From assembly GCA_965203055.1 (NCBI GenBank), contig OZ241863.1, positions 3,904,001-3,968,000 on the forward strand: a stretch of 64,000 nt of DNA, in the 5' to 3' direction. The notes beneath the pieces were generated by a model. It made no database searches and was not told the origin of the DNA. It saw only the letters and a program-made list of their open reading frames with translations. The first letter of the stretch is position 1, and every line of letters begins with the position of its first letter. The translations under genes and the position numbers were made by a program. The DNA is from Spirochaetia bacterium. Lineage in GTDB: Bacteria; Spirochaetota; Spirochaetia; SZUA-6; Bin103. Positions 49,371-56,291 of the stretch are shown piece by piece.

Positions 49371-50477
49371 TCAGATGCCCAGGTCGTAGCGATCGTAATC
49401 GGCCAACACTGCCGCGCGGGTGGCGGCGTTGCAGCGGTTGGCCTCGACTTCGCCGGCGAGCGGCTGATAGAGGAACCGCGGTTCGGCGGGATAGCGCTGC
49501 CGGCGGGCGTCGATGGCGAGCGCGATGACCCGCGCCCGGCGGTGGATGCGCTCGTCGTCGTACGGCTCCGGCGCCTCGCCGCGCACGCCGGCGATACTGG
49601 CGCGGCGGTGAAAGCCGAACGTCAGCGTCACGCGGCGGCGGTCGGAACGGTTGGCGAAGGCGCCGTGCAGGAGCTGGCGGTTGACGATCGCTACGTCGCC
49701 GGGAGCGCACACCAGCGGCACGGCGCCGGGCAGCCGGTCGGAGCCGCGGTTGGCGGCGACGCGCGCCTTGATGTCGATCTTGCCCTCGCGGTGCGAACCG
49801 GGAATCAGCCACAACCCGTTCTCCGGCGTGGTGGGATAGAGCTGGGCCATGAAGTTGAAGCCGTGGGTGCCGGCGTCCAGCTCCGGGTTGTCCCAGTGGG
49901 TGGTGCCGTCCTGATGCCACGCGGTCGACGGCCCCAACCCGGCCTCCTTGATCCACAGCGCCTCGCGGAAGGGAACGAAGTCGGGGCCGTTGATCTGCGC
50001 GGCGACGGCCAGAAGCCGCGGATGGCCGTACAGACACAGGAAGCTGTCCATGAACTGCAGGGGGCCGACGACGTTGACCAGCACCTCGGCGGGGGCGCCG
50101 GCCGGAGCGGCGTACTCGGTCATCCGCGCCTGGTACCGGCCGCGCGCCGCGCCGGTGCCGCCGAACGGATCGCTCAGCGGGCGGCCGAACTTGAAGCGGG
50201 CCATCCCCGGCGGGCCGGAACCGAGGGCCGGGCGTCCCGCCGCGTCGGTGGCCGCGGCGCTCGAAGTCGGCGCGCGTTCCAGCAACCGTTCGAAGTCGGC
50301 CGCCAGAGCGGCGACCTCGTCCGCGCCGAGCACCCCTTCGAAGAGATAGAACCCGGTGCGCCAGTACGCCGCGGTAATCCGCTGCCGCAGCCTGCCGTCG
50401 GCTTCGAACTCCAGCGGTCCGCGGTTCCCCAACTCGGCCGCGCGCCGGCTTCCTGCCGCCAGGTACTCATCTTCCAT
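49371..50477 (-). CDS. Phytanoyl-CoA dioxygenase (PhyH) family
   Basis: WHQD, ENGLWLIPGSH, LHGAFAN...R. Confidence 0.88.
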   Translation of the reverse strand: MEDEYLAAGSRRAAELGNRGPLEFEADGRLRQRITAAYWRTGFYLFEGVLGADEVAALAADFERLLERAPTSSAAATDAAGRPALGSGPPGMARFKFGRPLSDPFGGTGAARGRYQARMTEYAAPAGAPAEVLVNVVGPLQFMDSFLCLYGHPRLLAVAAQINGPDFVPFREALWIKEAGLGPSTAWHQDGTTHWDNPELDAGTHGFNFMAQLYPTTPENGLWLIPGSHREGKIDIKARVAANRGSDRLPGAVPLVCAPGDVAIVNRQLLHGAFANRSDRRRVTLTFGFHRRASIAGVRGEAPEPYDDERIHRRARVIALAIDARRQRYPAEPRFLYQPLAGEVEANRCNAATRAAVLADYDRYDLGI

Positions 50478-50527
50478 AACGCCACATGATAGCACGCCGC
50501 GGCGGCGCTGCGGCGCCACGCCCGCGG

Positions 50528-52342
50528 CTACGGGCCGCCGGCGTGGGGGGCGCGCAGCGCGGCGATTTCTTCCAGCAACGCGGCGCCGAGTTGGTCCGTC
50601 GGGACGACTCGGCGTTCCGCCGCGCCGCGCCGCGACAGTTCCGCGCCGCCCGCCGCCAGCGAGCGTTCGCCCACTACCACCCGCAACGGCAGGCCGCGCA
50701 GATCGGCGTCGGTCAGCTTGACCCCGGCGCTCAGCCCGCGGCGGTCGTCGTAGAGCACCTCGATGCCGGCGGCCGTCAACTCCGCGAACAGGCGCTCGGC
50801 GGCCTGCCAGGTCTCCGGCTTGCGGGCCAGCGCGACCAGGGAAACCTGATACGGGGCGACCGACACCGGCAGCGCCAGACCGCGCGCGTCGTGATGCTCC
50901 TCGGCCACGCACGCCAGCAGCCGCTCCAAGCCGATGCCGTACGACCCCATCACGATGGGGTGGGCGGCGCCCGCCGCGTCGGTGAAGCGCGCCTCCTGGG
51001 CCTCCGAGTAACGGGTGCCGAGTTGGCGCAGGGCGCCCACCGCGACCCCGCGGGCGAGGCGCAACGGGGCGCCGCAGGAAGCGCACGGCGCGCCGTCGAA
51101 GGCGGCGGCAACCAAGCCCACTACCGTCGGCTGGTAGTCTCGCCCGCAGCACACGTTGCGCAGGTGGTAGCCGGCCCGGTTGGCGCCCATCACCAGGTTG
51201 GCGCTCTCCGCCACCCAGCGATCGACCACGAAGACCGCCTTCCCCGGTTCGACGCCTACCGGCGAGGCGAAGCCCGGCACCATGCCGGCAGCGGCGATCT
51301 CATCCGCGTGCGCCGGCCGCAGCTCCCCCACTCCGGCCAGTTCCTGCACCTCGACCGGATTCGCCTCCAGGTCGCCGCGCACGACCGCGGCTACCACGGT
51401 GACGTTCGCCGCGCCCGCACCGGCCCCCTCCCCGGCACCGTCCCCAGCGCCCGCCGCGGCGGCGTCTGCCGGGGCGTAGAACACCATCTTCGCCGCTTGC
51501 TGCGGGGCGATTCCCAGGAACGCCGCCAACTCGTCGATGGTGGCGGCGCCCGGCGTGGGCACCTCCTCCAGCGCCGCGGGCTCTCCAGCCGCCGGCTCCA
51601 GCGCGAAGCGGGCGGCCTCGCGCCGGGCGGCGTAGCCGCACTGCGCGCACCGCGCGATACCGTCCTCGCCGCCGGCGGTCAGGTACATGAACTGATGGGC
51701 CGCGGCGCCGCCGATCGGGCCGCGGTCGCTGCGCGCCGCCGTCAACGGCACTCCGACGCGCCGCCCGATGCGCTGGAACGCCTCGTAGTGAGCGAGGTAC
51801 TGGCGCTCCAGCCCCGCCTGATCGCGGTCCAGGGAGTAGGAGTCCTGCCGGCGGAACTCGCGCAGCCGAAGCAGGCCGCCGCGCGGGCGCAGCTCGTCCC
51901 GGAAGCTGGTCCGCACCTGGAACACCAGCGCGGGGAGTTGCCGGTAGGAGGAGATTTCCGCGGCGGCGTGGAACGCCAGCGCCGCCTCGTGAGCCGTCGC
52001 CAGCACCAGGTCGCGCTCGCGGCGGTCGCGAAAACGCGCCGGACCGGCGTCGAGTTCAGGCCGGCGGCCCGCGGCCTGCCACAGCTCCGCCGGCTGGACC
52101 AGCGGCAGAGACAGCTCCTGGCCGCCGATCCGCTCCAGCTCCTCGCGCACGATCTGCTCGAGCTTGCGCAGCGCCCGCCAGCCGAGCGGCAACAGGGAAA
52201 CAATGCCGGGCGCCACCGGGCGCACGTAGCCGGCGCGCAGCAGCAGGGCATGCGATTCCCCCTCCGCCTCGGGGGGCGCATGCCGCAACGTGCTCCCGAA
52301 CAAGTTGGAAACCCGCTGCCCGATTCGTTCACCGCCCTGCAT
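50528..52342 (-). CDS. proS: Proline--tRNA ligase homolog (bacterial type with editing domain), degenerate active site
   Basis: LLLRAGY, FRDE.RPR.GL.R.REF, INS domain with GFASP, MGSYGIGLERL, anticodon domain; several catalytic motifs altered. Confidence 0.8.
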   Translation of the reverse strand: MQGGERIGQRVSNLFGSTLRHAPPEAEGESHALLLRAGYVRPVAPGIVSLLPLGWRALRKLEQIVREELERIGGQELSLPLVQPAELWQAAGRRPELDAGPARFRDRRERDLVLATAHEAALAFHAAAEISSYRQLPALVFQVRTSFRDELRPRGGLLRLREFRRQDSYSLDRDQAGLERQYLAHYEAFQRIGRRVGVPLTAARSDRGPIGGAAAHQFMYLTAGGEDGIARCAQCGYAARREAARFALEPAAGEPAALEEVPTPGAATIDELAAFLGIAPQQAAKMVFYAPADAAAAGAGDGAGEGAGAGAANVTVVAAVVRGDLEANPVEVQELAGVGELRPAHADEIAAAGMVPGFASPVGVEPGKAVFVVDRWVAESANLVMGANRAGYHLRNVCCGRDYQPTVVGLVAAAFDGAPCASCGAPLRLARGVAVGALRQLGTRYSEAQEARFTDAAGAAHPIVMGSYGIGLERLLACVAEEHHDARGLALPVSVAPYQVSLVALARKPETWQAAERLFAELTAAGIEVLYDDRRGLSAGVKLTDADLRGLPLRVVVGERSLAAGGAELSRRGAAERRVVPTDQLGAALLEEIAALRAPHAGGP

Positions 52343-52378
52343 CGCTATAGTCCTGCCGGCCGCGTCGTAATCTCTTAC

Positions 52379-52861
52379 TCAGAGTGGATACTGGAGGCCC
52401 TCAGGTTTCAGCCGCTTCATTTCTATGGCCTTGATCAAAATGTTCTTGACCTTCTTCTTCGATAACACTCGGTACTGATCCTTCGCTAGTGCTGCGACGA
52501 TACACTTGGCGGTCGCGCCTAGCCGTTCATAGTCGAGACCGTGTAGATCGACATGCTGATTAACCAAATCGGCGACCGGTGTCCTTCCGTTCGTGGACTT
52601 CAGCCGCTGATCGGCGGCATCCCGTAGTACCTTGTCTGCAACCCACACTACCTCGATCTTGTCCAAACGTTGTCCAGCCGATGCCATCGCCAGCACGACG
52701 TCTTCGACCTCGTGCTTCTTACCGTCACCGCATCTCCAGAATGACAGCGTTTTCCCATGTGTACGCAGGTCTGCAGTAACAGCGTCGGCTGAAATTTCGT
52801 CATCTCCTATATCTTGCCGATCTTCCCATTTCGACCGTGTGATCTTGCGAGCAAGGAACAT
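52379..52861 (-). CDS. Hypothetical protein, possible ART/RES-like fold
   Basis: Low GC; pattern R-K(N-terminal)...LSFW...HVDL; starts 4 nt after the upstream stop. Confidence 0.6.
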   Translation of the reverse strand: MFLARKITRSKWEDRQDIGDDEISADAVTADLRTHGKTLSFWRCGDGKKHEVEDVVLAMASAGQRLDKIEVVWVADKVLRDAADQRLKSTNGRTPVADLVNQHVDLHGLDYERLGATAKCIVAALAKDQYRVLSKKKVKNILIKAIEMKRLKPEGLQYPL

Positions 52862-52865
52862 CTAG

Positions 52866-53600
52866 CTACGATGTCTTGAGATCGTTGACGACCATATCAA
52901 TATACTGTGCAAGCCACTGTTCTGACTCGTCGTGGCCCTCAAGAACCGAAATCAAGTCCGAATCTGCCCAGTGTTCAGCGGCTTGTACCGCCGCGTCTCT
53001 GATCTGAACGTTTTTCACAACCAACGCTTTGCACACGAGATCAGCCCGCCATACGGCTGTTCCAGGATCAGTTCGACGCCCCAAACAGCGCAGTAGCGAG
53101 GCCGCGAAAGACGGCCGTCCGGCGTCCAAAGAAACCTCACTCAACCACGCAAGAAGCGGCTGATCATCCCCGAGGCTCAACGCATTCTCCAGGACATCGT
53201 CGGCTGGATGGGCCATACCGTCTTCAAGTACTTCGGAATCGAACGCAGCGTACAGGGTACGCTCGAGGCGTGCTATTGCCTCGTCAGTCCACTCAGTAGA
53301 AACGCGTTGCGGTTCTCGTGTGTGGTCCCTCATCGCACTCTTGGCTACCATATGCGTAGCCGCAGCGACGACCAGCGGGGGCTTGGCTGACACGATTAGT
53401 GGCGGTATAAGTACCGCTTGGTTCGATACAGCAAGAGAACTTCTCGCAAGTATAAATACCTCTTCCTTCGGTACTACAAGTAAACCCTCTTCTTCAATCC
53501 AGACCTGTTGGTAAGTGGATTGTGCAGAGTCTCCGATTCGACGATAATCGACTATCGGAAGACCATACTCTCGAATCAGCGTCGTCTGCTCAGTCTGCAT
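52866..53600 (-). CDS. Hypothetical protein with C-terminal HEAT-like helices
   Basis: Low GC; ATG 53600 overlaps the end of the upstream gene; IRDAAVQAAEHW...ESEQWL. Confidence 0.6.
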   Translation of the reverse strand: MQTEQTTLIREYGLPIVDYRRIGDSAQSTYQQVWIEEEGLLVVPKEEVFILARSSLAVSNQAVLIPPLIVSAKPPLVVAAATHMVAKSAMRDHTREPQRVSTEWTDEAIARLERTLYAAFDSEVLEDGMAHPADDVLENALSLGDDQPLLAWLSEVSLDAGRPSFAASLLRCLGRRTDPGTAVWRADLVCKALVVKNVQIRDAAVQAAEHWADSDLISVLEGHDESEQWLAQYIDMVVNDLKTS

Positions 53601-54357
53601 CGAAAAGCTCTCTGGACTTGTCCGTGATGACGGCCTCGAACGCAGACCGCTCTCGATCACGTAGATCTTGTGCCTTTTCCATAGCTATATCCTTTCCTAC
53701 AGCAGCTTCCGTTTCCCAAATAACATCGAGATCGAGAACTATCTGGGCGTCATCCGTTGAACTCGAAATTCTTGCTTGCGATAGAATGAGGCGCACGCCG
53801 TCTTCATAGGAAAGCTCCGTACGACTTACATACTCACTCATCCGCGGCGGTAATTCCGGGACAACCGGCAACGCGCACCTCAGATATTCTCCGATATTTG
53901 CCGGCCCTTGCGGAATGCCGATCCGGTTGAGGTACCGAACTCCAATTCTCTTGACACCATTCGGCTTGGCTACCATCCAGTATGCATCGAGAGTCTGCTG
54001 GATTCGACTCCGAAATTCTTCCCAGCCACCGCTCCGGTCGGCAGTACGATGATAGGGCCGAAGCATATGTACGCTAACCACATCGGGACCGACGCCAACA
54101 ATTCTCTTGCCGTCATCCGTTATTAACTGGACTCTTACCAGTCTTTCGCCATGTTGTAACGCGGAAGGTTGTCCATTCCGCACTGCTAGCCCGACCCGTA
54201 CCACGTTCTGCTGCCGCGGCTTACCTGAATATTCGTCACCCAGTTTACTGTGGAGCTTGCCTGGAATGGTAAGGTCCCACTCTTCGCTTGGATCAAAATG
54301 AAATTCGCATAGCGCTTCCTCAATCGGCGGATTCCTGTATCGACGACGGGTGTCCAT
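53590..54357 (-). CDS. TIGR04255 family protein
   Basis: AGGAG RBS; YRNPPIEEALCEFHF, VKRIGVRYLNRI, VLDLD, FEAVIT. Confidence 0.8.
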   Translation of the reverse strand: MDTRRRYRNPPIEEALCEFHFDPSEEWDLTIPGKLHSKLGDEYSGKPRQQNVVRVGLAVRNGQPSALQHGERLVRVQLITDDGKRIVGVGPDVVSVHMLRPYHRTADRSGGWEEFRSRIQQTLDAYWMVAKPNGVKRIGVRYLNRIGIPQGPANIGEYLRCALPVVPELPPRMSEYVSRTELSYEDGVRLILSQARISSSTDDAQIVLDLDVIWETEAAVGKDIAMEKAQDLRDRERSAFEAVITDKSRELFDAD

Positions 54358-54482
54358 CAGTCTCCTCTCTGAGCGTGCGATGTCTCCCACTGTCGCGGCA
54401 CGCGCAACGCTTCCTTCGCAAGGTCCCTAAGGAAGTATACCGTGACCGCACCGTGTGAGGCCGCGGGCCAGGGCAAGGGCGG

Positions 54483-56216
54483 TCAGCCGCCGCCGACGGT
54501 GACTGCCAGCTCCGGCGCCCGCCGGCGCTTGCCGAGGCGGTCCGCGCGGCGCCGTTCGAGGCGCTTCAGGTGCTGCTGCTCGCTGATCGGCGCATGCGGA
54601 AACCAGCGCTGGCCGCGCAGGTAGGGCACCAGGGCCGCGTACGCGTCCGGCGTGCCGGTGCGGAAGAGCTGTTCGGCGGCGTAGGCTCCGACGTAGCCGT
54701 CGGCATCGTCCAGCGCCGCGGCCAGCGCCGCGATACCCGCGCCGCCGGTGGGGCCGATGCGGAACAGCGCCTGCAGCACGTACTGGCGCAGTTCGCTCTC
54801 CGGCTCACGCTGCAGGCGCTCCAGCAGCGCCTCTTCGATCCCGTCCGCGGGCGCGGCGATGATGCCGATGGCCGACAAGGCGTGCCGGCGCACGTTGGGC
54901 GCCGGGTCGCCGGCCGCGGCCAGCAGGCGCGGCAGCGCGACCGCCGCCGGGCGGCCGATCTCGCCGAGGGCGTAGGCGGCCCAGGCGCGGGTGTGCTCGC
55001 CGGCGGCCGTGAGGCGCTCCGCCAACGGCGCGACCGCCGCCGCTCCCATGGCGCCCAGGGCGTGGGCGGCGATGGAGACGTGGGTCACCGGATCGAACTC
55101 GTAGAACGCCGCGTCCGCGGCCAACAGCTCCAGGAGCGGCGCCTGTGCAGGGGCTCCCGCCGCGCCGAGCGCATAGGCGGCGTTGAGCCGCACCGGTTCG
55201 TAGTCATCGCGCAACGCGCGCACCAGCGCCGCGACCACCGCCTCGACGTCTCCGCCGGCGCCGCGCAGGAAGCCCAGCTCGTTGGCCGCCTGCAACCGGT
55301 GCTCCGCTACCGGTGCCTGCAGCCGGTCGATCAGCGCGCCGGCGGTGAGGCGCTGCCCCCGCTCGCCGGGGCCGCGCTGAAAGCGGTCGGCGGCGCCGCG
55401 CATCCAGTTCCAGACGTAGGTCCAGAGAATCTCATGGTCGGGAATCGCCCGCACGTCGGGCTGCTCCCAATCCGCCGTCCGATTGTCCCAGGTCGGCGCC
55501 GCCGGCTCCTCGGTGCGCATGAACACGAACTTCTGCCCGTAGCGGTGCTGTTGCGCGAGATTTTCGATCACCGAGTGGCCGACGTCGAAGTGCATGATCG
55601 AGACCGCGCCGAGACCGCCGGTCAGCGGCACCATGGTGCGGTGGATGTAGTGCTCGGGGAGTCCATAGGTACCGCTGTCGTGCGGCGTCAGGGTCAGCAG
55701 CGGGTCGGGGTCGCCGCGCCGCGCGAGATTGTGCTGATAGTGGGAGCGCGGCACGATCACCGTGGGCCCCTGCTCGTCGGGACACTCCTGCGGGTAGTAG
55801 AACAGGATCGCCCAGCGCGGCACCCGGTGGCGCGGCTTCTGGCCGCCGGCGTGCCCATCCTTGTGAATCCCCATGATCAGCCGGCGCCCGTTCGCGCCGG
55901 CGGCGGCCGGCCTGGCGAAGTTGGGATGGCAGTGGCGGTGCGGCAGCATCACGTAATTGCGGCCCAGCAGGCTGGTCAGGGCGCCGCGCACCTGCGGCGC
56001 GTCCATGATCCGCTGCAGCTCCGGCACCACCGGCAGCACGTTGTTCAGCGGATTGTACGCCCATTCCACCTCCGGGCTTCTGATCTTGGAGAAGATGGCG
56101 TCAGTCTTTTCGAAGATGGCGCGGTGCACCGCTTCCGGCAGCTCGGCCTGCACCTGCACGTAGCCGTCGACGATGAACCGGCGGACCGCGGCGTCCGACA
56201 ACAGATGGGTACTCAT
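54483..56216 (-). CDS. PhyH-family dioxygenase fused to HEAT repeats
   Basis: N-terminal F..DGY, HKD, GPT.IVP.SH; C-terminal VRLNAAYALG / AAYALGEIG repeats. Confidence 0.85.
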   Translation of the reverse strand: MSTHLLSDAAVRRFIVDGYVQVQAELPEAVHRAIFEKTDAIFSKIRSPEVEWAYNPLNNVLPVVPELQRIMDAPQVRGALTSLLGRNYVMLPHRHCHPNFARPAAAGANGRRLIMGIHKDGHAGGQKPRHRVPRWAILFYYPQECPDEQGPTVIVPRSHYQHNLARRGDPDPLLTLTPHDSGTYGLPEHYIHRTMVPLTGGLGAVSIMHFDVGHSVIENLAQQHRYGQKFVFMRTEEPAAPTWDNRTADWEQPDVRAIPDHEILWTYVWNWMRGAADRFQRGPGERGQRLTAGALIDRLQAPVAEHRLQAANELGFLRGAGGDVEAVVAALVRALRDDYEPVRLNAAYALGAAGAPAQAPLLELLAADAAFYEFDPVTHVSIAAHALGAMGAAAVAPLAERLTAAGEHTRAWAAYALGEIGRPAAVALPRLLAAAGDPAPNVRRHALSAIGIIAAPADGIEEALLERLQREPESELRQYVLQALFRIGPTGGAGIAALAAALDDADGYVGAYAAEQLFRTGTPDAYAALVPYLRGQRWFPHAPISEQQHLKRLERRRADRLGKRRRAPELAVTVGGG

Positions 56217-56291
56217 GACCGGATCAGCATACGGAAATCGCGCCCGCCCGCCCACCGCTGCGCAACCGCCGCGCGGGGTGCCGATTACCGG

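Follow-up and report, generated by a model that had tools for sequence, protein, structure and literature searches.

The question raised by this locus is what a prolyl-tRNA synthetase (ProRS) gene is kept for once residues of its synthetic site have been replaced at positions expected to contact proline and ATP. The gene lies on the minus strand at 50528-52342 of the window, by which we mean the whole 64,000-nucleotide stretch analyzed here (contig OZ241863.1 of a Spirochaetia bacterium, positions 3,904,001 to 3,968,000). It is a P-type ProRS whose apparent inactivation is recent and on which purifying selection continues to act, and the answer that we favor, with a little better than even confidence, is an editing-only role, the best-supported mechanism. 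We regard this reading as the best one because the genome has a two-gene arrangement, the substrate contacts of this copy are replaced, its editing residues are invariant, it is under purifying selection, and the constraint on its domains has shifted. The gene is divided as follows.

50528..52342, minus strand: whole gene, a P-type ProRS paralog of 604 aa with a degenerate synthetic site; stop codon at 50528-50530
51650..52342, minus strand: class II catalytic domain, N-terminal part, residues 1-231, with altered sites and within-clade variability
51050..51649, minus strand: INS editing domain, residues 232-431 (Pfam tRNA_edit, 67.5 bits)
51407..51472, minus strand: Ala/Gly-rich low-complexity insert within INS, residues 291-312, seen in the alignment and in a predicted local distance difference test (pLDDT) score <50 at 295-313
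50849..51049, minus strand: catalytic domain, C-terminal part, residues 432-498, with GVAVGALRQLG and an intact motif 3 (GSYGIGLER, R474)
50531..50848, minus strand: anticodon-binding domain, residues 499-604 (Pfam HGTP_anticodon, 51.6 bits)

A preliminary description of this DNA, made from the sequence alone, had called the gene a full-length ProRS homolog without a frameshift, and this is what we found: the open reading frame has 604 codons, an ATG start, and no internal stops, and Pfam places all three domains in the protein (tRNA-synt_2b at 104-483, tRNA_edit at 263-396, and HGTP_anticodon at 499-591), with PF04073 scoring 67.5 bits against a cut-off of 25.5 at residues 263-396. An AGGA lies about 10 bases 5′ of the start, and the stop of the preceding gene is only 36 bases away. 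The protein passes TIGR00409, the model for bacterial-type ProRS (417.8 bits, cut-off 306.7), and narrowly misses NF006625, a stricter equivalog (543.7 bits against 558). Its AlphaFold model, built with 42 aligned sequences, has a pLDDT of 83.8 and a predicted template-modeling score of 0.83, and the top fold match is E. faecalis ProRS (2j3l_A, TM 0.82/0.87); this model supports the predicted ProRS architecture only and does not speak to the occupancy of the pocket. The closest sequences, 77-81% identical, are normal P-type ProRSs of its own genus, which are Gemmatimonadota by name, as the database names of its homologs are in general.

The window protein was aligned with solved ProRS structures (HMMER) and with E. 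coli ProS (from NC_000913), and the altered strings that had been quoted for it (LATAHEA, REFRRQDSYSL, AHQF, and GVAVGALRQLG) were all confirmed in both alignments. In E. coli numbering, the changes are W86R, T109A, E112A, K138S, M157R, K158Q, E209Q, E410A, H413A, and F415R, and further derived changes are M108T, I414L, and an altered loop at 201-202, where "derived" is judged against normal orthologs (the normal state at position 413 being N in the phylum and H in E. coli). Several of the differences first listed (GP to AM, S to A in SHEF, F to L in YSF, and H to N in GxEVGH) occur phylum-wide in apparently normal orthologs and are not damage. Likewise, the claim that the TxE proline loop was lost holds for its first half: the Thr of the Thr and Glu pair that holds the imino group of proline has been replaced (A117, that is, T109A), but the Glu is retained (E119, equivalent to E111), and it is the next residue, E112, that has become Ala (A120). 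The segment GxEVGH(I/V)F reads GVAVGALR, with E410A, H/N413A, and F415R. The N-terminal catalytic part also contains S146, R165, and Q166 in motif 2, a variable proline-binding loop at about 205-212, and AHQF with Q217. In agreement with the preliminary description, which had noted that the motif 2 and motif 3 arginines, the INS lysine, GFASP, and the anticodon domain remain, the class II ATP-binding residues R148, E150, F163, and R474 align with E. coli R140, E142, F155, and R450, and K285 and GFASP are in place.

The expected roles of these positions can be taken from MtbProRS, for which it is reported (PMC13629369) that Thr111 and Glu113 bind the imino group of proline and Arg142 its carbonyl, that adenine is bound by Glu144, Phe157, and Arg462, that the ribose is held on Glu422 and the phosphate position on His425 as well as Glu422, and that the ATP site is lined by Met159 and Phe427. 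Judged from motif spacing, these positions would correspond, in that order, to E. coli T109, E111, R140, E142, F155, R450, E410, H413, M157, and F415, and at T109, E111, E410, H413, M157, and F415 the window protein has A, E, A, A, R, and R, respectively. On this alignment, one proline contact and several ATP and ribose contacts appear to be gone, two arginines would now sit in the ATP pocket, and the core class II residues stay. Of the positions conserved in at least 97% of 115 normal orthologs, the catalytic domain has 129, INS 45, and the anticodon domain 15; the window protein is changed at 20, 2, and 0 of them, respectively, and this concentration of changes in the catalytic domain is far from chance. 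We infer that proline activation and aminoacylation have been lost or that charging is very poor.

The origin of these changes was traced in an alignment of the best 120 database homologs, 19 genome loci, and E. coli ProS, with four fragments set aside. The 115 full-length orthologs are near-invariant at LAMTHEE, KFRD, REFxMKDSYS, AHEF, GVEVGNIFQL, and GSYGIGxxR, and degenerate motifs are confined to five groups: the window's clade (P0001-P0012 and the fragment P0097, 89-98% identical), P0047 with P0048, L017 with P0043, P0040, and P0041, L016 with P0042, and L029. When 137 sequences were placed in a tree (FastTree, LG), the first three groups came together within the genus as a single clade on a long branch, L016 and P0042 stood apart among normal sequences, and L029 fell in another genus (g2). 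Since L016/P0042 and L029 lie outside the main degenerate clade, there were at least three independent origins of the degeneration. The genus is represented by 11 genomes: the gene is normal and full-length in five, is present as a normal N-terminal fragment (L033) in one, and is degenerate in three (G000, the window's own genome, G006, and G010); no P-type match was found in the two that remain, which are incomplete.

Within these groups, the altered sites are not the same from one sequence to another. The degenerate sequences have T, A, N, or D at position 109, RQ, RH, VA, or AA at 157-158, A, S, D, or T at 413, and LR or LV at 414-415, and L017 has a seven-residue deletion of the 201-207 loop. 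The clade of the window gene and L017 shares a loss, with M157/K158, F415, and K138 all changed. The damage is young, given that sister species keep the normal motifs and that the altered positions differ among close relatives. The preliminary description had looked to the conservation of the substitutions in orthologs; they arose within one genus, where they vary, and do not form an old conserved family signature. Because the altered pocket residues differ among close relatives, the pattern is one of released constraint rather than of a new specificity. The two erosion cases outside the main clade have spectra of their own: L016 (G006:C4:2221224-2222951) reads AMACEE, RRQDSW, and AHGF, while L029 (G014:C2:1383560-1385263) reads MKGSCS, ADEF, GSICRL, and GSCGIG, and INS residues are intact in both.

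The ratios of nonsynonymous to synonymous divergence (dN/dS) were estimated pairwise by the NG86 method on codon alignments with 200 bootstraps; the window gene was compared with L017, both being in the degenerate clade (dS 0.39), and the normal values come from two independent normal pairs. For the catalytic domain, dN/dS is 0.285 [0.20-0.40] in the degenerate pair and 0.093 [0.06-0.136] in the normal pairs; for INS, it is 0.29 [0.17-0.46] and 0.20 [0.135-0.305]; and for the anticodon domain, 0.35 [0.15-0.67] and 0.28 [0.15-0.48]. Thus, a three-fold loss of constraint is confined to the catalytic domain, and the INS and anticodon intervals of degenerate and normal genes overlap. The overall value goes from about 0.17 in normal genes to about 0.30 in degenerate ones, and the same pattern was obtained for L016 against L013. 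For comparison, the E-type ProRS, a second synthetase described below, served as a control: its catalytic core has a dN/dS of 0.06-0.11 in three pairs of degenerate genomes and 0.04-0.11 in four normal pairs, and there is no genome-wide relaxation, since this core is similarly constrained in both. For L029, the catalytic value is slightly raised (0.11-0.17 with nearer relatives and 0.23 with L027 and L028; median 0.097), and its erosion is too recent to carry weight. With a dN/dS of about 0.3, upper bootstrap limits of 0.40-0.67 throughout the degenerate pair, and invariant editing residues, the gene is under continued purifying selection and is not decaying neutrally, an outcome in favor of the preliminary description.

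The amino-acid divergence within clades tells the same story from another side. In the window's clade, the N-terminal catalytic part has diverged by 0.103 and INS by 0.043 (ratio 2.39), with a mean of 0.049 for the anticodon domain; in the whole degenerate clade the values are 0.17 and 0.108 (ratio 1.57), and in two normal clades 0.060 and 0.044 for the catalytic part against 0.135 and 0.135 for INS (ratios 0.45 and 0.33). Variable columns in the window's clade number 67 of 213 in the N-terminal catalytic part, 32 of 178 in INS, 12 of 67 in the C-terminal catalytic part, and 19 of 106 in the anticodon domain. The order of conservation has therefore been reversed, and what this clade now conserves most is INS and the anticodon domain. 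The editing and anticodon domains are under selection and the synthetic site has been released, which is the combination one would expect of an editing-only protein.

The editing site itself has been spared. In E. coli numbering, T257, K279, D350, H369, and PGxxxP do not vary in any of the 21 degenerate or 115 normal sequences, and in the window protein they are T263, K285 (equivalent to K279), D374, H393, and PGFASP (355-361). We take T257, D350, H369, and the GXXXP loop to be the INS catalytic residues. As for the lysine, K279A is described as an editing-defective mutant of E. coli ProRS, and the full-length E. coli enzyme is reported to deacylate pre-formed Ala-tRNAPro (PMC3973320). According to the same source, INS has no tRNA specificity of its own and relies on the recognition of G35/G36 in the anticodon by the anticodon-binding domain, some 70 Å away. 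Because INS depends on that domain for specificity, a ProRS that no longer charges could still proofread, but only if the body and the anticodon domain are retained.

An editing-only ProRS would need another enzyme to do the charging, and the genome has one. G000 is a single 4.56 Mb contig, 95.9% complete, in which the window gene is the only one that passes TIGR00409 and one other gene passes TIGR00408, the E-type model. The second canonical proS whose presence the preliminary description had anticipated is this gene, at G000:C1:1151203-1152699 (TIGR00408 461.9 bits, cut-off 437). It encodes a protein of 516 aa that matches T. thermophilus ProRS (1h4q) at 1.5e-140, about 60% alike, and has RPTSET, the motif 2 block RWE..RTAEFLWQEGHT, QAGTSH, and a C-terminal Tyr. 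It has no PF04073 editing domain and is thus a separate synthetase without editing. Counting matches at E≤1e-60, 37 of 41 relatives have the E-type enzyme, which is missing from none of the 21 high-quality genomes and passes the TIGR00408 cut-off in 35 of 41, and 26 of 41 have the P-type; therefore, the E-type is the housekeeping enzyme and the P-type copy accessory. Within the genus, the E-type ProRS has a fast-evolving C-terminal domain, with a dN/dS of 0.30-0.70 (G000 gene and orthologs L005 and L068-L074) against 0.04-0.11 for the core.

Aragorn called 60 tRNA genes in G000. Four of them are standard tRNAPro genes with GGG, CGG, or UGG anticodons, C1:G72, and A73, and the three tRNAAla genes all have G3:U70 and a normal acceptor stem. 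No unusual tRNA, such as a tRNAPro-like molecule with an Ala anticodon, was found among these calls. A fifth "tRNA-Pro(ggg)" of 93 nt (G000:C1:3747395-3747487, outside the window) lies in a very GC-rich repetitive sequence and is probably a false call.

These data bear on the possibility that the protein still works as a ligase: it might be a ProRS of weak or conditional activity, or it might have been re-tuned to a different amino acid or acceptor, the latter being close to the ligase for another substrate that the preliminary description had listed among its options. R148, E150, F163, R474, and E119 are retained, TIGR00409 is still passed, and active ProRS paralogs are known. For instance, B. 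thuringiensis has a P-type BtProRS1 and an E-type BtProRS2, reported to be both functional and both to serve a P-type tRNAPro with G72/A73 (PMC11229370); G000 resembles it in having both ProRS types and four standard tRNAPro genes with C1:G72 and A73, but differs in that its P-type copy lacks substrate-contact residues. In Streptomyces, the paralog ProRSx is described as an active enzyme that charges tRNAProA, a co-evolved tRNA with an Ala anticodon (PMC9437257), and it too is a duplicated bacterial ProRS with a changed role. However, G000 yielded no tRNA of that kind, and the synthetic site of the window protein is degenerate: the positions of the imino-binding Thr and the ribose-binding Glu are both Ala, Arg replaces Met and Phe in the ATP pocket, and the constraint on the catalytic domain is down three-fold. 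Moreover, the pocket residues vary among close relatives, so that no new set has settled, unlike what a new specificity would lead one to expect. We consider a working ligase of either kind quite unlikely, and the idea of a ligase for another substrate was not borne out.

The reading to which we give slightly better than even chances is that a full-length ProRS, unable to charge tRNAPro or able to do so only very poorly, has been retained as a deacylase directed at tRNAPro. The E-type ProRS, having no editing domain, would charge tRNAPro in this organism, and the relic would bind tRNAPro through its anticodon-binding domain; the catalytic domain would act as scaffold and dimer body. The INS site of the relic would then hydrolyze mischarged tRNAPro in trans, most likely Ala-tRNAPro; both this putative deacylase activity and its substrate are predictions. 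As for the history, the odds seem to us evenly balanced that the P-type copy gave up charging at least three separate times in a genus with both types and lives on as a "ProRS-ed" guided by the anticodon, removing what the E-type mischarges. Of the roles first proposed, that of a paralog acting as a trans-editing or tRNA-binding pseudoenzyme, with a loss of charging predicted from its motifs, is thus the best supported, but nothing was found in favor of a heterodimer subunit.

A neighboring possibility is that the protein binds tRNAPro for some purpose other than hydrolysis by its own INS, for instance, to lend specificity to a free-standing deacylase, to buffer or regulate tRNA, or to moonlight in another way. 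The anticodon domain is conserved, YbaK is reported to have no tRNA specificity and to work in complex with ProRS (PMC3973320), and aminoacylation-poor LeuRS paralogs that still bind tRNA are described (PMC9437257). In addition, G000 retains one free-standing INS-like protein, a tRNA_edit protein of 161 aa (G000:C1:2909567-2910049; L031:1429-1911, plus strand) that is conserved in genera g1 and g2. In the PDB, it comes closest to 3op6 (3.5e-14), an uncharacterized structure, and to ProXp-ala 5vxb (2e-8); it is not a YbaK equivalog and may belong to an uncharacterized ProXp family, and we found nothing in the literature joining 3OP6 and YbaK. Against a purely binding role, the INS catalytic residues, which binding would not need, are invariant, the 161-aa protein gene at C1:2.91 Mb is not linked to the degenerate proS at 3.95 Mb, and G006 has the relic but no free-standing PF04073 match. 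We therefore hold such a role to be distinctly improbable.

A second kind of free-standing INS-like gene, ProXp-x-like (2CX5, which the G003 copy matches at E 6.5e-37, goes by the name ProXp-x in PMC11295145), occurs in every one of the six genus members with a normal P-type ProRS, namely, the five normal complete genomes and G004 (loci L063-L067 and L059, at G005:C1:379220-379567, G008:C1:4920287-4920634, G001:C1:6210486-6210836, G003:C5:1678285-1678635, G007:C39:154259-154603, and G004:C400:5208-5558). A functional hand-over inferred from the joint loss of ProXp-x was considered and set aside, as genus g2 has a normal P-type ProRS without ProXp-x.

Variation among strains gives a view of how intact the gene is. 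All 12 database clusters of the window's clade are of full or near-full length with every indel in frame, and the degenerate genes of G006 and G010 have no internal stops. The Ala/Gly-rich insert of INS, which is predicted to be disordered, is length-polymorphic, the proteins ranging from 596 to 615 aa. The window's clade was absent among the 120 listed of 337 shorter homologs, the most similar of those listed being 85% identical, and five that were inspected are normal-type fragments, two with out-of-frame tails. The tails of these two, P0137 and P0210, on contigs of 16.6 and 7.5 kb, look out of frame, and these other genus members may carry a frameshift or have been misassembled there. Twenty runs from eight studies are listed for this stretch, many labeled as sponge or marine metagenome and none of them an RNA run, and four were compared. 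In one, X6, the whole gene lies on a single 5,115-base contig with 44 differing letters over 1,797 aligned bases (~97.6% identity). At 40 of 48 differing sites, the X6 changes affect 29 codons, of which 17 are changed synonymously and 12 non-synonymously (INS 11 and 3, catalytic 5 and 8), and in the Ala/Gly-rich insert the contig has 51 letters against 18, in frame.

Several observations weigh against an editing-only role. The residues kept in the synthetic site (the motif 2 Arg, Glu, and Phe, the TXE Glu, and the motif 3 Arg) leave room for residual adenylate formation. In the degenerate pair, the INS dN/dS (0.29) is not below the catalytic one (0.285), NG86 is crude on genes with 72-75% GC, and the DNA comes from three degenerate genes only; what carries the constraint argument is the departure from normal orthologs, together with the divergence within the clade. 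At E≤1e-60, 15 of the 41 relatives have no P-type match, although G029, G032, and G035 among them have short N-terminal fragments, and editing is apparently dispensable in this order, because five genomes (G025, G028, G032, G035, and G040, 87-95% complete) have an E-type ProRS and no PF04073 match whatsoever. Ala-tRNAPro might already be dealt with by the 161-aa protein. Within the genus, genomes are smaller in the three degenerate species (4.6-5.0 Mb) than in the others (5.0-8.0 Mb), and the ProXp-x-like gene was not found in G000 (by tblastn too), G006, or G010, which together fit a general loss of genes; the correlation between the absence of ProXp-x and a degenerate ProRS is itself weak, as it involves at most two independent events. 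Finally, the X6 contig drops seven letters at 52059, which, if real, would shift the frame past about codon 95, and this may be a broken allele or an artefact of alignment or assembly.

Many of these points would suit a different explanation, namely, that a redundant second ProRS without a function of its own is on its way to being lost, its open frame and moderate dN/dS reflecting the short time elapsed and past constraint. The P-type enzyme is the accessory one in the order (26 of 41, against 37 of 41), the degenerate species combine smaller genomes with a missing ProXp-x-like gene, one metagenome contig possibly carries the seven-base gap, overall dN/dS has risen as described, and P0097, in the window's clade, is a C-terminal-only product of 344 aa on an 8.5-kb contig. 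On the other hand, the path between the window gene and L017 runs within a clade that already shares the loss, and over a dS of 0.39 it shows a dN/dS of 0.30 with unbroken frames; the relaxation affects the catalytic domain only, with INS and anticodon constraint as in normal orthologs; the five editing features hold in all 21 degenerate sequences; and the shorter homologs listed include no member of the window's clade. On balance, we judge mere redundancy to be unlikely.

The neighborhood adds one more feature.

52379..54390, minus strand: three low-GC genes in a 2-kb segment, GC 0.565 against about 0.72-0.75 around it

This segment contains a gene for a TIGR04255 family protein (53590-54390) and two for proteins without a Pfam or NCBIfam match, and it sits between proS and a HEAT-repeat gene (54483-56255) on the same strand. 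The HEAT-repeat gene is directly upstream of proS in L011-L015 and L017, and the segment is probably a recently acquired island, which may drive or disturb the transcription of proS. A scan of 50200-54600 for promoters and terminators gave 0 sites of either kind. Downstream of proS, a PhyH dioxygenase gene is found in the window and L017 only. None of these neighbors (PhyH, HEAT-repeat, and the three low-GC genes) gives a functional link to proS.

Several known systems help to place the protein. It shares with P-type ProRS (E. coli ProS and E. faecalis 2J3L) the three-domain architecture, 36% identity, the editing residues, and the anticodon domain, but, unlike them, it has replaced proline and ATP contacts (T109A, E410A, H413A, M157R, F415R, E209Q, and K158Q), falls below the NF006625 cut-off, and has a catalytic constraint relaxed three-fold. 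A parallel in organization is that of crenarchaea, in which ThrRS-cat is reported to charge without editing and ThrRS-ed, with editing and anticodon-binding domains, to clear the mischarged product in trans (PMC3592468; PMC11295145). By analogy, a charging enzyme without editing and a synthetase-derived partner that keeps its editing and anticodon domains would make up the pair in G000. However, ThrRS-ed belongs to another synthetase family, has another editing fold, and is ancient and fixed, whereas the pair in G000 combines E and P types, its relic keeps the whole catalytic domain, and the split is recent and limited to a few species of one genus. The free-standing deacylases of the INS superfamily (ProXp-ala, YbaK, ProXp-x, and ProXp-ST1/2) are reported to hydrolyze mischarged tRNA, Ala-tRNAPro in the case of ProXp-ala (PMC11295145), and they have a homologous catalytic fold and would do the same job as that proposed here. 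These proteins are single-domain and read the acceptor stem or borrow ProRS for specificity, whereas the window protein keeps the synthetase body and anticodon domain and would select tRNAPro by its anticodon, in the manner described for INS in cis (PMC3973320). In passages from two synthetase-paralog surveys, ProRSx is the sole ProRS entry of one (PMC9437257), and the YbaK/ProX proteins are those of the other (PMC5388404). A ProRS that has lost charging but retains its editing domain was not found described in print, in a search whose coverage left out most subscription journals.

In practical terms, a gene such as this one would be named "proline--tRNA ligase" in an annotation and could be mistaken for a working enzyme. 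Proofreading of tRNAPro is known in two forms, the built-in INS of an active ProRS and small single-domain proteins such as ProXp-ala and YbaK. If our reading is true, the protein would represent a third route, a ProRS counterpart of the archaeal ThrRS-ed. Because the change is recent and unchanged sister orthologs exist, the pair lends itself well to studying the contribution of the catalytic body to editing and the ways in which a duplicated synthetase finds a new use. The protein would also be a synthetase caught in the act of turning into a free-standing proofreading factor, and thus a living model of how trans-editing factors arise from duplicated synthetases. With normal sister species at hand, the order of events could be read directly, and it would be one in which the ATP and proline pocket and the proline-binding loop go first, while the INS and anticodon domains tighten.

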